Part shown: one piece after another, positions 21,486 through 22,331 of the stretch
Layout of the letters: each line of letters starts with the position of its first letter
Numbering within the stretch: the stretch's first letter is position 1
Source of the DNA: Escherichia coli
Lineage (GTDB): Bacteria > Pseudomonadota > Gammaproteobacteria > Enterobacterales > Enterobacteriaceae
Length of the DNA stretch: 64,000 nucleotides
Assembly: GCF_030013595.1 (NCBI RefSeq)
Contig: NZ_CP122768.1
Strand: one strand, 5' to 3'
Made by a program: the position numbers and the translations under genes
The notes under the pieces: model-generated
What the model saw: the letters and a program-made list of their open reading frames with translations, nothing else
What the model was told of the DNA's origin: nothing
Database searches by the model: none

Positions 21486-22331
21486 TCAGCCACGTCTTGC
21501 ACGCTGGATGTCGCGTATCCGCTGTTTTTCTGCGCGCGCCATCAGATACCAGGCGATAAATCCGACAATTCCGACCGCGCCGAGGATCAATGTTGCCAGG
21601 GCGTTGATTTCCGGATTCACCCCCATCCGCACGCTGGAAAAGACCAGCATCGGTAACGTGGTGGCTCCCGGCCCGGAAACAAAGCTGGCGATCACCAGAT
21701 CATCAAGCGACAAAGTAAAAGCCAGTAACCAGCCAGAAATGATCGCGGGCATGATCATCGGTAGCGTAATGACGAAAAACACTTTCAGTGGCGTCGCACC
21801 AAGATCCATCGCTGCTTCTTCTATCGAGCTATCCAGTTCCCGCAGACGCGACGAAATAACGACTGCCACATAAGCCGTACAGAAAGTGACATGCGCCAGC
21901 CAGATGGTGAGCATACCGCGGTCCGCAGGCCAGCCAATGGCATGAGCAAGCGCGACGAATAACAACAATAGCGACAAGCCCGTGATGACATCTGGCATCA
22001 CCAGCGGCGCGGTGATCATAAAGGCAAAGCCATTTGAGCCGCGAAACCTGCCAAAGCGCACCAGCACGACCGCCGCAATCGTCCCGAGGATCGCCGCCGC
22101 CGTCGCCGCACAGGCCGCAATTGTCAGGCTTAAACCAACCGCACTCATCATCGCGTCATCGCGCAATAATTCGCCATACCAGCGCGTTGACCAGCCGGCC
22201 CACACCGTCACCAGCTTCGAGCTGTTGAATGAATAGATCACCAGCATCAGCATTGGCGCGTAGAGAAAGGTGAAGCCCAGCAGCAAAATCACAATCCGCT
22301 AGGGCGAACGAACTACCGGTAAATTATTCAT
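21486..22331 (-). pseudogene. potI: potI (putrescine ABC permease) with an in-frame amber codon at codon 11 (TGG to TAG, W11*); the track ORF 21486..22292 is the remainder, re-startable at GTG
   Basis: Reverse complement from ATG 22329-22331 reads ATG AAT AAT TTA CCG GTA GTT CGT TCG CCC TAG CGG ATT GTG = MNNLPVVRSP*RIV, where remembered PotI is MNNLPVVRSPWRIVILLL; the ATG overlaps the potH stop (ATGA) as expected for the operon. Confidence 0.6.

Follow-up and report, generated by a model that had tools for sequence, protein, structure and literature searches.

A recurrent amber codon at a Dcm site near the start of potI in Escherichia coli

In a 64-kb stretch of Escherichia coli DNA (hereafter the window), the potI gene of the PotFGHI putrescine importer is interrupted by an in-frame TAG only ten codons after its start. 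This raises the questions of whether the stop codon is real, how it arose, and what it leaves of PotI and of putrescine uptake.

The potI locus and its amber codon

The gene lies on the minus strand, where the ATG (22331..22329) is followed by ten sense codons and then by the TAG (22301..22299), such that the range 22296..22331 corresponds to potI codons 1-12. Past the TAG, the codons CGG ATT GTG lead into an uninterrupted potI reading frame that extends down to position 21486. The stop is therefore codon 11 of 281 in a reading frame that is unbroken in relatives. The features of the locus are as follows.

22328..25622, minus strand: the potFGHI genes upstream of potI, all intact
24510..25622, minus strand: potF, intact
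23282..24415, minus strand: potG, intact
22328..23272, minus strand: potH, intact, with its TGA stop within ATGA
22339..22343, minus strand: native Shine-Dalgarno (SD) sequence GGGAG of potI, within the 3'-terminal part of potH (-7.3 kcal/mol when paired with the 16S 3' end)
22329..22331, minus strand: native potI ATG, overlapping the potH stop as ATGA
22302..22331, minus strand: ten-codon remnant reading frame MNNLPVVRSP with the native start
22299..22301, minus strand: potI amber TAG replacing Trp11 (TGG); the variant base is 22300 (plus-strand T, ancestral C)
22299..22303, either strand: ancestral Dcm site CCAGG (plus strand) or CCTGG (coding strand), changed to CTAGG; its inner, methylated cytosine lies at 22300
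22293..22295, minus strand: ATT codon 13, the start given by NCBI PGAP to a shortened potI coding sequence (269 aa) in public carriers
22290..22292, minus strand: GTG codon 14, the closest canonical in-frame restart codon, 6 nt past the TAG and without a usable SD
21486..22292, minus strand: the rest of the potI reading frame (268 aa from GTG14), otherwise intact, with the TM1 core and the BPD_transp_1 domain kept

An earlier reading of this DNA (the original prediction) had described the ATGA overlap of the potH stop and the potI ATG, the peptide MNNLPVVRSP ahead of the TAG, and an in-frame GTG three codons downstream whose product would lack 13 residues. The overlap and the GTG (GTG14) are present in the sequence, and translation confirms the peptide. 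The tryptophan codon that it gave for K-12 is also there: K-12 MG1655 reads cgcccTGGcgg, and the possibility that this reference might itself carry the stop falls away. Because MG1655 uses the identical ATG start and encodes a 281-aa PotI, the annotated potI start is not the downstream GTG. The proposed single G-to-A transition on the coding strand agrees with the comparison to K-12 and with that to HCP5S3_I2, the nearest complete genome, which has TGG and differs from the window at 2 of 2,800 bases, one of them being the potI change. The earlier reading missed the Dcm cause, the recurrence in public genomes, and the annotation of a shorter PotI by NCBI.

Origin and reality of the base change

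On the plus strand, the change is C to T at position 22300, with its direction polarized by using K-12 as the outgroup; the sequence is CCCTGGCGG in K-12 and the nearest complete relative, and CCCTAGCGG in the window. The change has the characteristics of a Dcm deamination hotspot, in that it affects the inner C of CC(A/T)GG, converts C to T, and recurs independently. Judging from this sequence context, the TAG probably resulted when the inner C of the Dcm (CCWGG) site on the non-coding strand, a 5-methylcytosine, underwent spontaneous deamination. The dcm and vsr genes are located outside the 64-kb window.

Mutation at such sites has precedents. The natural rate at such Dcm sites in E. coli is given as 8-fold (Cherry 2018, as cited in PMC9520237), and amber hotspots at CCAGG are known from lacI (Coulondre, Miller, Farabaugh & Gilbert 1978, as described in the review PMC12606429). 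The lacI ambers share with potI the creation of UAG by a G:C-to-A:T change at the second C of the Dcm sequence CC(A/T)GG. They differ in being laboratory-selected mutants of one reporter gene in the CAG-to-TAG orientation, whereas the potI allele is a natural polymorphism of a transporter gene in wild isolates, with TGG becoming TAG by deamination on the non-coding strand. The work of Cherry, as far as it is reported in PMC9520237, describes for E. coli genomes the same population-level excess of C-to-T changes affecting the inner cytosine of CCWGG, but concerns general rates rather than the specific potI allele.

A census of the window's genes reveals the same bias. Among 5,426 complete genomes, 23 of the 74 potential ambers that can be derived from Dcm sites (31%) are present in at least one genome, compared to 9-17 of 222 non-Dcm CAG/TGG-to-TAG controls found in nature (Fisher p 3e-9 to 2e-6; odds ratio 5-11). 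This excess matches both the 8-fold natural rate and the lacI hotspots, whose strength is about 10-fold. The potI codon 11 amber ranks third in frequency among the 74, and other dispensable genes (aqpZ, ybjP, gsiC, pdeI, and ybiU) exhibit a comparable pattern of Dcm ambers. The remaining Dcm-derived potential ambers of the operon, at potH151, potG359, and potI261, were not seen in the census, a result of 0/3 that is not significant because just 31% of such sites are hit.

Methylated motifs are also places where sequencing can fail, and one possibility is that the T at 22300 is a methylation-induced long-read consensus error in a strain whose true codon is TGG. The window spans a copy of IS10 and is therefore probably a long-read or hybrid assembly, and in consensus sequences from older nanopore base-callers, about 70% of the errors fall in Dcm motifs, with homopolymers coming next (PMC6591954). 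The potI variant base is the inner C of CCAGG and thus lies in a methylated motif. Moreover, three of the four private differences of the window lie no more than 3 nt from a Dcm motif, as do 2.4% of positions in general. Relative to near-identical relatives, these private differences are 32059 (the ybjL amber) and 49517 (a change in gsiD), each at the inner C of a Dcm site, an added A at 56177 (the moeA frameshift) that lies 2 nt from CCAGG, and a further C-to-T change; relative to the nearest complete genome, the window has 16 differences, including three Dcm-site changes and two homopolymer insertions. The differences at 32059, 49517, and 56177 are missing from the nearest relatives, and they fit the profile of CCAGG/CCTGG substitutions and homopolymer-length errors described for nanopore data (Wick, Judd & Holt 2019, PMC6591954).

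The potI TAG is unlike these look-alikes, as three independently produced draft assemblies from the lineage of the window also contain it, as do 11 complete genomes that different laboratories have generated. Specifically, GCA_017839865.1 is 100% identical to window positions 14735-27917 (13 kb), TAG included, with its contig ending at the IS10 junction, whereas GCA_012621055.1 and GCA_012098455.1 carry the TAG with one base different in 16.4 kb and come from isolates that lack the IS10 insertion. The accession series and the contig end lying exactly at the IS10 junction suggest that these drafts are short-read assemblies. In addition, the accuracy of current R10.4.1 models is normal at E. coli CCWGG sites (PMC11610603), and methylation also marks genuine hotspots of mutation (PMC13250602). 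We therefore rejected a base-calling artefact for the potI TAG, an explanation that we regard as highly improbable, and the TGG at 22299..22301 for which the original prediction had left room is not what the independent assemblies show. The TAG in these drafts came to light through exact-product look-ups. One further exact match to the 268-aa PotI was rejected as a carrier, since the genome is wild type and its shorter PotI stems from the gene caller having picked the GTG; for this reason, contig counts from exact 268-aa PotI look-ups are upper bounds.

Recurrence of the allele among E. coli lineages

A 55-mer centered on the variant base, which seeds a megablast match solely when that base is shared, locates the TAG in 11 of 5,426 complete E. 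coli genomes (about 0.2%), the region itself being present in 5,417. Among the carriers are an O157:H7 sub-lineage known from New Zealand and Japan, with a 3-kb haplotype that is otherwise that of other O157:H7 strains; EC2 and the SW0716 isolates, with a K-12-like haplotype; Z1323PEC0008 and NR3736; and CP024694-type drafts. They were obtained from urine, wastewater, cattle, a cat, and humans. When complete genomes and draft assemblies are considered together, at least six distinct haplotypes bear the TAG, and the six differ from one another at 19-83 of 2,400 sites. At least six E. coli lineages have thus each acquired the identical allele on their own, and some of them have kept it. A literature search on potI, stop codon, and O157 returned nothing relevant to the W11 amber allele.

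Recombination occurs in E. coli core genes, and the 55-mer around the amber is identical in six complete-genome carriers. It is conceivable, then, that a single ancestral TAG allele was moved among lineages by short-patch homologous recombination. However, for nearly every pair of carriers compared, differing sites are found 20-118 nt away on both sides of the amber base, such that the imported patch would need to be shorter than about 80-230 bp on six occasions. Carriers share no tract of linked variants around 22300, and each carrier haplotype has a wild-type twin only one or two bases away, as with the window and HCP5S3_I2, EC2 and K-12, and the O157 carriers and other O157 strains. Given these flanking differences so close to the amber base, we rejected a single origin, which has very little probability in our estimation. 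We favor repeated origin, explained by the hotspot nature of the Dcm site and the low cost of the lesion.

Overall, we consider it very probable that the potI stop is a real, inherited TGG-to-TAG nonsense polymorphism that was produced by 5-methylcytosine deamination, that recurs, and that likely causes loss or reduction of PotFGHI function. It is an ordinary, tolerated natural polymorphism that is already present in public genomes, and its mechanism is not new.

Consequences for PotI and putrescine uptake

The ten-codon remnant MNNLPVVRSP is still translated from the native ATG. As an ATGA pair, potH and potI resemble the overlapping gene pairs in which reinitiation has been studied (Huber et al. 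2019, PMC6728339; PMC10666635), and ribosome delivery to the potI start is therefore coupled. Ribosomes coming from potH would be expected to start at this ATG, produce the 10-residue peptide, and stop at the UAG, and full-length PotI would not be made. PotI could then be supplied only by rare read-through or by inefficient termination-reinitiation at GUG14, which lies 6 nt further on. In a protein restarted there, the hydrophobic core of TM1 and the complete permease domain would remain, but the N-terminal tail with its positive charge would be missing.

From this arrangement, we infer that putrescine uptake by PotFGHI is most likely lost or strongly reduced. Such a loss would be tolerated because putrescine uptake in E. 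coli is redundant; ΔpotFGHI strains have been constructed, and other putrescine importers exist (PMC6307189). Secondary decay is absent, with the rest of potI as well as potF, potG, and potH intact in the window and in every carrier examined. A counterpoint to loss is the persistence of the TAG allele within O157:H7, where the sub-lineage that carries it has been found on two continents. This persistence, along with the three unseen ambers at potH151, potG359, and potI261, would also fit retention of function through a restart.

In-frame start codons near the stop are GTG at codon 14 (gap of 6 nt) and TTG at codon 16. The SD match of GTG14 is -3.3 kcal/mol, compared to a background of -2.6 +/- 2.1, and its GGA is placed just 2 nt upstream. 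Because the match is at the background level, we rejected independent, SD-driven initiation at this codon. An effect of the G-to-A change on mRNA structure was likewise rejected, as the MFE structure is identical and the accessibility is similar.

Reinitiation at GUG14 (or UUG16) could nevertheless provide a working PotI that lacks residues 1-13, in which case the allele would be effectively neutral. The GTG is located 6 nt past the stop, inside the range in which termination-reinitiation works in E. coli (losses of 5-70% at +2 nt and 40-80% at +14 nt; PMC10666635), and it is predicted to be moderately accessible. Nothing of the permease domain is lost from the restart product, which also contains residues 13-32, where the 19-residue windows of highest hydrophobicity lie. 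The first ~19 residues of PotI fail to align even with PotC, several lineages have retained the allele along with an otherwise intact potI and an intact potFGH, the other Dcm ambers of the operon have never been seen, and PGAP treats potI as a shorter intact protein. However, reinitiation in E. coli usually requires an SD, and its removal lowered reinitiation in four of five gene pairs (PMC6728339), whereas GTG14 has only the background-level match noted above. The product would also lose a cationic tail that is common in the family, since 33 of 35 representatives have a tail of 6-14 residues with at least one Lys or Arg before the equivalent of V14. None of the six haplotypes carries a compensatory change between the TAG and the GTG, and the PGAP start at ATT reflects an annotation rule, not evidence of translation. 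On balance, we view rescue by restart as possible but doubtful.

Comparisons with known systems point in both directions. The ten-codon reading frame and the 6-nt gap before the GTG resemble engineered constructs with spacings of +2 to +14 nt (PMC10666635), although those constructs kept the native SD and start of the downstream gene, and GTG14 has neither native context nor SD. The closest solved homologue of PotI is PotC of the spermidine/putrescine importer PotABCD (PDB 8y5f and related; E 8e-56), whose permease fold region aligns over PotI residues 20-268 but leaves the N-terminal ~19 residues of PotI without alignment. No structure of PotFGHI was found. Restarts after early nonsense codons are said to have been shown biochemically for lacI, in work attributed to Files, Weber and Miller in 1974 and to Steege in 1977, and for T4 rIIB. 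These cases share with potI an early amber, an in-frame GUG a few codons further on, and a possible truncated active protein. They differ in that a restart in potI is only inferred, no SD is present there, and the truncation takes away the cationic anchor of a membrane helix.

We speculate, as an unlikely case, that W11am is a naturally recurring "soft" nonsense allele in which reinitiation supplies enough tail-less PotI for transport. If so, this Dcm-hotspot amber survives repeatedly in the wild since it is not null, unlike ambers elsewhere in the operon. The locus would then offer a natural system for studying SD-independent reinitiation and the dispensability of the cationic N-terminal tail of ABC permeases.

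Two other explanations were also weighed. The original prediction had suggested that a suppressor tRNA might decode the codon, in which case an amber (or ochre) suppressor of the host would restore full-length PotI. UAG followed by C is a relatively weak terminator, some basal read-through is expected at UAG-C, and a second apparent in-frame amber in the window (ybjL) might hint at a suppressor background. However, that amber is missing from the nearest relative, in which the potI amber is present, and no tRNA gene is found in the 64-kb window. Of 5,426 genomes, just 2, both laboratory strains, match the probes for suppressor alleles one step away from tyrT/V, serU, leuX, trpT, and glnU/W. The supE probe (glnV/X CTA) matches 157 genomes; the 60 of these 157 that were listed are all K-12 laboratory derivatives, and none of these 60 is a carrier of the potI TAG. 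With no tRNA gene in the window and suppressor alleles confined to laboratory strains among the matches listed, suppression lacks support, and we regard it as very unlikely.

The remaining explanation is adaptive. Recurrence could reflect selection for switching PotFGHI off in some niches, with the Dcm site providing the easiest route. Consistent with this are the six or more independent origins, the third rank of potI11 among the 74 Dcm ambers, the varied sources of the carriers, and a 15.5-kb deletion in unrelated Logan assemblies that removes potFGH and potI codons 1-12. Convergent loss would be expected to make the other Dcm ambers of potG, potH, and potI recur as well, but none of those three sites is hit. 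The frequency of the allele is very low (11/5,426), and aqpZ, ybjP, gsiC, pdeI, and ybiU show the same pattern. Because these other dispensable genes behave alike, mutation bias and weak purifying selection suffice, and adaptive loss seems improbable to us. Our preferred reading thus remains a recurrent and tolerated Dcm-site lesion that most likely abolishes or strongly reduces PotFGHI uptake.

By itself, the potI amber matters little: it is rare and apparently tolerated, it arises by a textbook mutational mechanism, and the importer that it affects is one of several that take up putrescine redundantly. Its broader value is in indicating that, among the natural polymorphisms of E. coli, in-frame TAGs at CCWGG form a class that is both common and predictable. 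Since 31% of the CCWGG amber sites in this 64-kb region are hit, genome scans should down-weight such TAGs unless they are otherwise unusual. Automated annotation masks the lesion by calling a shorter, seemingly intact PotI from the ATT start, and carriers such as the O157:H7 sub-lineage may therefore lack PotFGHI activity in a manner that is invisible in annotation.

The same window also separates a verified Dcm-site change, that of potI, from identical-looking candidate errors, namely an amber in ybjL and a frameshift in moeA. These latter two are not found in the nearest relatives and are hence best treated as candidate variants. Nine further exact matches to the 378-aa YbjL fragment were rejected as ambers, as they represent wild-type contigs that end at that codon, and exact look-up returned no record of the frameshifted MoeA product or of the window's RcdA T145 variant. 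Enrichment of differences at Dam 6mA positions (22038 and 46287) was likewise rejected as a demonstration of nanopore error, since the adenines of GATC truly are hotspots (PMC13250602) and relatives share both changes. In the window's lineage, these two differences are real SNPs at Dam positions.

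The potI reading frame and its Dcm site

The window carries the potFGHI operon on its minus strand, where the start of potI and the codon of interest are positioned as follows.

22331..22329, minus strand: potI ATG, overlapping the potH stop codon as ATGA
22301..22299, minus strand: TAG at potI codon 11

As the original prediction described, translation from this ATG yields MNNLPVVRSP and then TAG, after which the frame reads CGG ATT GTG and remains open down to 21486. K-12 MG1655 has an identical start and reads cgcccTGGcgg, giving a 281-aa PotI with Trp11, which confirms the tryptophan that the original prediction gave for K-12. 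Because K-12 uses the same ATG and carries TGG rather than a stop at codon 11, the downstream GTG is excluded as the true potI start. Just two of the 2,800 bases around potI distinguish the window from its nearest complete genome, that of the pig isolate HCP5S3_I2: the single G-to-A change relative to TGG that had been predicted, and a synonymous substitution at 22038. The window potH has 314 codons with AAQPKPFKLW at its N-terminus (~23237-23245), versus 317 in K-12 with AAQSKPPGGFKLW; this three-codon length variant is natural and is common to the window, HCP5S3_I2, and the E. coli genome NR3736.

On the plus strand the potI change is C to T at 22300, the inner and Dcm-methylated cytosine of an ancestral CCAGG pentamer (22299-22303). 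Deamination of 5-methylcytosine to thymine would convert CC-TGG to CC-TAG on the coding strand. The same mechanism underlies the lacI amber hotspots at CCAGG, which are ~10-fold over-represented (Coulondre et al. 1978, reviewed in PMC12606429). It likewise accounts for the ~8-fold excess of C-to-T changes that the inner CCWGG cytosine shows in genomes of natural E. coli and Salmonella (Cherry 2018, summarised in PMC9520237). Methylated bases are true mutational hotspots (PMC13250602). By its sequence context, its direction, and its recurrence, the potI amber works like a Dcm-site 5-methylcytosine deamination hotspot mutation.

Two other SNPs of this lineage, at 22038 (potI codon 98; A to C) and 46287 (A to T), each replace the adenine that Dam methylates in GATC. 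Both are common to independent relatives and are therefore real, and they are consistent with 6mA positions as mutational hotspots (PMC13250602). HCP5S3_I2 has a Dam-site SNP of its own, at the equivalent of window 42470.

Inherited mutation or consensus error

When polarised with K-12, the comparison of the window with HCP5S3_I2 yields 16 changes, comprising 14 SNPs and two +1 homopolymer insertions. One possibility is that the potI TAG is a nanopore consensus error at a methylation motif. Of the window SNPs, three change the inner cytosine of a Dcm site, a class that makes up 0.43% of positions (P = 3e-5), and two change the 6mA position of a Dam site; one insertion lies 2 nt from CCAGG. With old nanopore base-callers, Dcm motifs accounted for ~70% of consensus errors and homopolymers came next (PMC6591954), whereas current models show no Dcm-motif error excess (PMC11610603). 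Since methylated bases are also true hotspots, the composition of the changes alone could not settle this question. However, a 13,183-nt contig of GCA_017839865.1 is 100% identical to window 14735-27917, TAG included; it also has the private SNPs at 17754, 22038, and 25400 and a T7 run, and it stops at the IS10 junction in nfsA. GCA_012621055.1 and GCA_012098455.1 likewise carry the TAG, with one base different in 16.4 kb, and they lack the nfsA insertion and are therefore separate isolates. From the accession series and the contig break at the IS, we infer that all three are short-read assemblies. The 268-aa product starting at GTG14 (codon 14) is called on at least 24 contigs by exact-sequence look-up. 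The presence of the TAG in independent drafts of the same lineage indicates that the potI amber is inherited there, and the explanation as a nanopore motif error is rejected.

The T7 run (18888-18894, between artM and artJ; T6 in K-12 and HCP5S3_I2) occurs in three independent lineage assemblies and is therefore real. A private Gly75Ser change in potF (25400) is common to the lineage drafts L016, L022, and L024. Together, positions 25400, 22038, and 22300 place 3 of the 14 SNP differences from HCP5S3_I2 in the 4.1 kb operon where ~0.9 is expected, a nonsignificant cluster that could hint at relaxed constraint.

Other changes in the window are the following.

27919-29247 (nfsA region 27300-29760): IS10-type element (ISVsa5 family), 1,329 bp, splitting nfsA, with a 9-bp target duplication
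32059-32061, plus strand (ybjL 30925-32610): Gln379 CAG to TAG, C to T at the inner C of CCAGG
49517, minus strand: synonymous CTG to TTG in gsiD, the third Dcm-site transition
56177-56180, plus strand (moeA 55334-56570): +1 frameshift, A4 for A3, stop at codon 291

The ybjL amber leaves two ORFs, of 378 aa and 179 aa, in place of a 561-aa aspartate:alanine antiporter. The nearest relative with the potI amber, GCA_012621055.1 (L016), has the ancestral C at 32059 and an intact ybjL. None of the 5,426 complete genomes has this amber, and its one recurrence is in an SRA-derived assembly (L026) of unrelated background. Either the change is very recent or it is a consensus error. A CCAGG Dcm site precedes the moeA run by 2 nt; the moeA frameshift occurs in none of the 5,426 genomes, and the aberrant product is not on record. 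GCA_049544575.1 (window 42307-64000) and GCA_036246625.1 (47952-64000) are identical to the window save at 49517 and 56177 and encode intact MoeA of 411 aa. The frameshift is probably an assembly error. The gsiD change is window-only against the near-identical relatives L036 and L037, yet it is found in three complete genomes (CAU16175, PEC240, and VCSW5). Of the four window-only differences, three coincide with a Dcm motif or lie no more than 2 nt from one, as 2.4% of positions do (P ~6e-5). They resemble either leftover consensus errors at methylation motifs or very recent events. The ybjL, gsiD, and moeA changes are untrustworthy without reads.

Inactivation of nfsA (nitroreductase A) is a recognised route to nitrofuran resistance. 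The L024 contig ends precisely at the nfsA IS junction, and HCP5S3_I2 has nfsA wholly deleted. The IS10-type copy of HCP5S3_I2 is located elsewhere, adjoining ybjP, and its pentapeptide-repeat protein gene is interrupted by IS1, while that of the window (13235-13243; 13.2-15.2 kb) is intact.

Recurrence and the class of Dcm-derived ambers

Megablast needs an exact 28-mer, and a 55-mer or 51-mer probe with the variant base central therefore matches only genomes carrying that base. By such probing, 11 genomes carry the potI amber among 5,426 complete ones of E. coli. O157:H7 accounts for five of them, three from New Zealand and two from Japan; their 3 kb haplotype is one mismatch from other O157:H7 and otherwise identical. 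EC2 and three wastewater isolates share a common K-12-like haplotype two bases from K-12, Z1323PEC0008 and NR3736 add further haplotypes, and exact-product look-up gave a sixth (CP024694.1 and two drafts). The truncated products match up to ~120 contigs exactly, an upper bound because some gene callers choose GTG in wild-type potI. The literature searched makes no mention of the allele, although it is already present in public genomes.

Carrier haplotypes differ from one another at 19-83 of 2,400 positions, and for most pairs differing sites come within 20-118 nt of the amber base on both sides. Wild-type twins one or two bases away exist for three haplotypes (window, EC2, and O157). A single origin spread by recombination is less parsimonious, as it would require recombined patches shorter than ~80-230 bp, six times. 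The close flanking differences and the wild-type twins make independent recurrence the parsimonious reading.

We probed all 74 codons in 54 window genes at which Dcm-site deamination yields an in-frame TAG, together with 222 randomly chosen non-Dcm CAG/TGG-to-TAG control sites. Matches in at least one genome were obtained for 23/74 Dcm sites (124 genomes), compared to nine control sites among the matches listed and up to 17/222 in all (68 genomes; Fisher p 3e-9 to 2e-6, odds ratio 5-11). The potI amber, which ranks third of the 74 sites behind aqpZ codons 88 and 197, thus belongs to a common and predictable class and is ordinary within it. Carriers of Dcm ambers include IAI39, CE10, ST540, and FRIK O157 strains, whose older assemblies predate nanopore sequencing.

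The two aqpZ codons (gene at ~1115-1810) are by far the commonest, with ~72 genomes together; codon 88 is hit in many backgrounds and codon 197 mostly in O157:H7 strains, plus CD45. Aquaporin Z thus appears to be often inactivated in natural E. coli. Among the controls, a ybjJ amber is one allele in ~45 genomes, with all stated serotypes O111, and looks clonally inherited; a dgcI amber is one allele common to ~11 genomes.

Consequences for PotI

Full-length PotI is impossible without read-through. The window has no tRNA genes in its 64 kb. One-step suppressor tRNA alleles were probed among the complete genomes, with supE44 detected as a positive control in C600, DH5alpha, DH1, J53, and S17-1. 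The 60 supE matches listed, of 157, are all K-12 laboratory derivatives, all remaining classes combined match two laboratory strains, and no potI-amber carrier was seen among the matches listed. The proposal that a suppressor tRNA decodes the UAG is thus unsupported by the window and by the matches listed.

Apart from the amber, the whole operon (potF, potG, potH, and the rest of potI) is intact, both in the window and in every carrier examined. NCBI PGAP annotates carriers (e.g., L001, L002, L007, and L008) with a 269-aa potI CDS from the ATT at codon 13 and no pseudogene call, which makes the lesion invisible from product names; this start is an annotation rule and no evidence of translation. 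The first canonical in-frame start codon past the stop is GTG14, at a distance of 6 nt, followed by TTG16. The anti-SD match of GTG14 (-3.3 kcal/mol) is at the background level of all potI 20-mers (-2.6 +/- 2.1; native start -7.3), and the GGA ahead of it is spaced by only 2 nt. Initiation would have to be by termination-reinitiation, in which ribosomes just freed of the 10-mer would reinitiate at GTG14. In native E. coli gene pairs reinitiation still takes place across short gaps, at a cost of 5-70% at +2 nt and 40-80% at +14 nt (PMC10666635), and SD removal left reinitiation substantially lower in four of five pairs (PMC6728339). The G-to-A change has no effect on the predicted potI mRNA structure.

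A restart product would retain the BPD_transp_1 domain in full and the TM1 windows of highest hydrophobicity (residues 13-32), but would be without R8 and R12. An N-terminal tail of 6-14 residues with at least one Lys/Arg before the V14 equivalent is present in 33 of 35 full-length cluster representatives (50% identity); the other two look degenerate. The alignment to PotC in PotABCD (8y5f), the closest solved homologue, begins at PotI residue 20.

Early ambers rescued by restart are known in lacI and T4 rIIB, and the potI amber resembles them. It is not grouped with them, given the background-level SD match of its putative restart codon. Rescue of PotFGHI by restart seems unlikely: persistence of the amber in an O157:H7 sub-lineage speaks weakly for it, as does the lack of matches to the other operon Dcm ambers (potH151, potG359, and potI261) among the 5,426 complete genomes, but 0/3 is unremarkable where just 31% of such sites matched. 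Loss or strong reduction of PotFGHI is the likeliest outcome. DeltapotFGHI mutants have been made in MG1655 and an APEC strain, and E. coli has other putrescine importers, namely PotABCD, PotE, YeeF/PlaP, and PuuP (PMC6307189); loss is plausibly tolerated. The potI amber is of low interest in itself; it serves mainly to calibrate scans, and possibly as a natural test bed for SD-independent reinitiation.

Three SRA-derived Logan assemblies of another lineage (L021, L023, and L025) carry a 15.5 kb deletion with its junction at window 22295 and 37758. It takes 5' ybjG (codons ~1-134), everything on to and including potH, and the first 12 codons of potI; what remains of potI begins with ATT13/GTG14. 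Its endpoints adjoin CCWGG sites, CCAGGCAAT in ybjG and CCTGGCGGAT in potI, and the junction shows AT microhomology.
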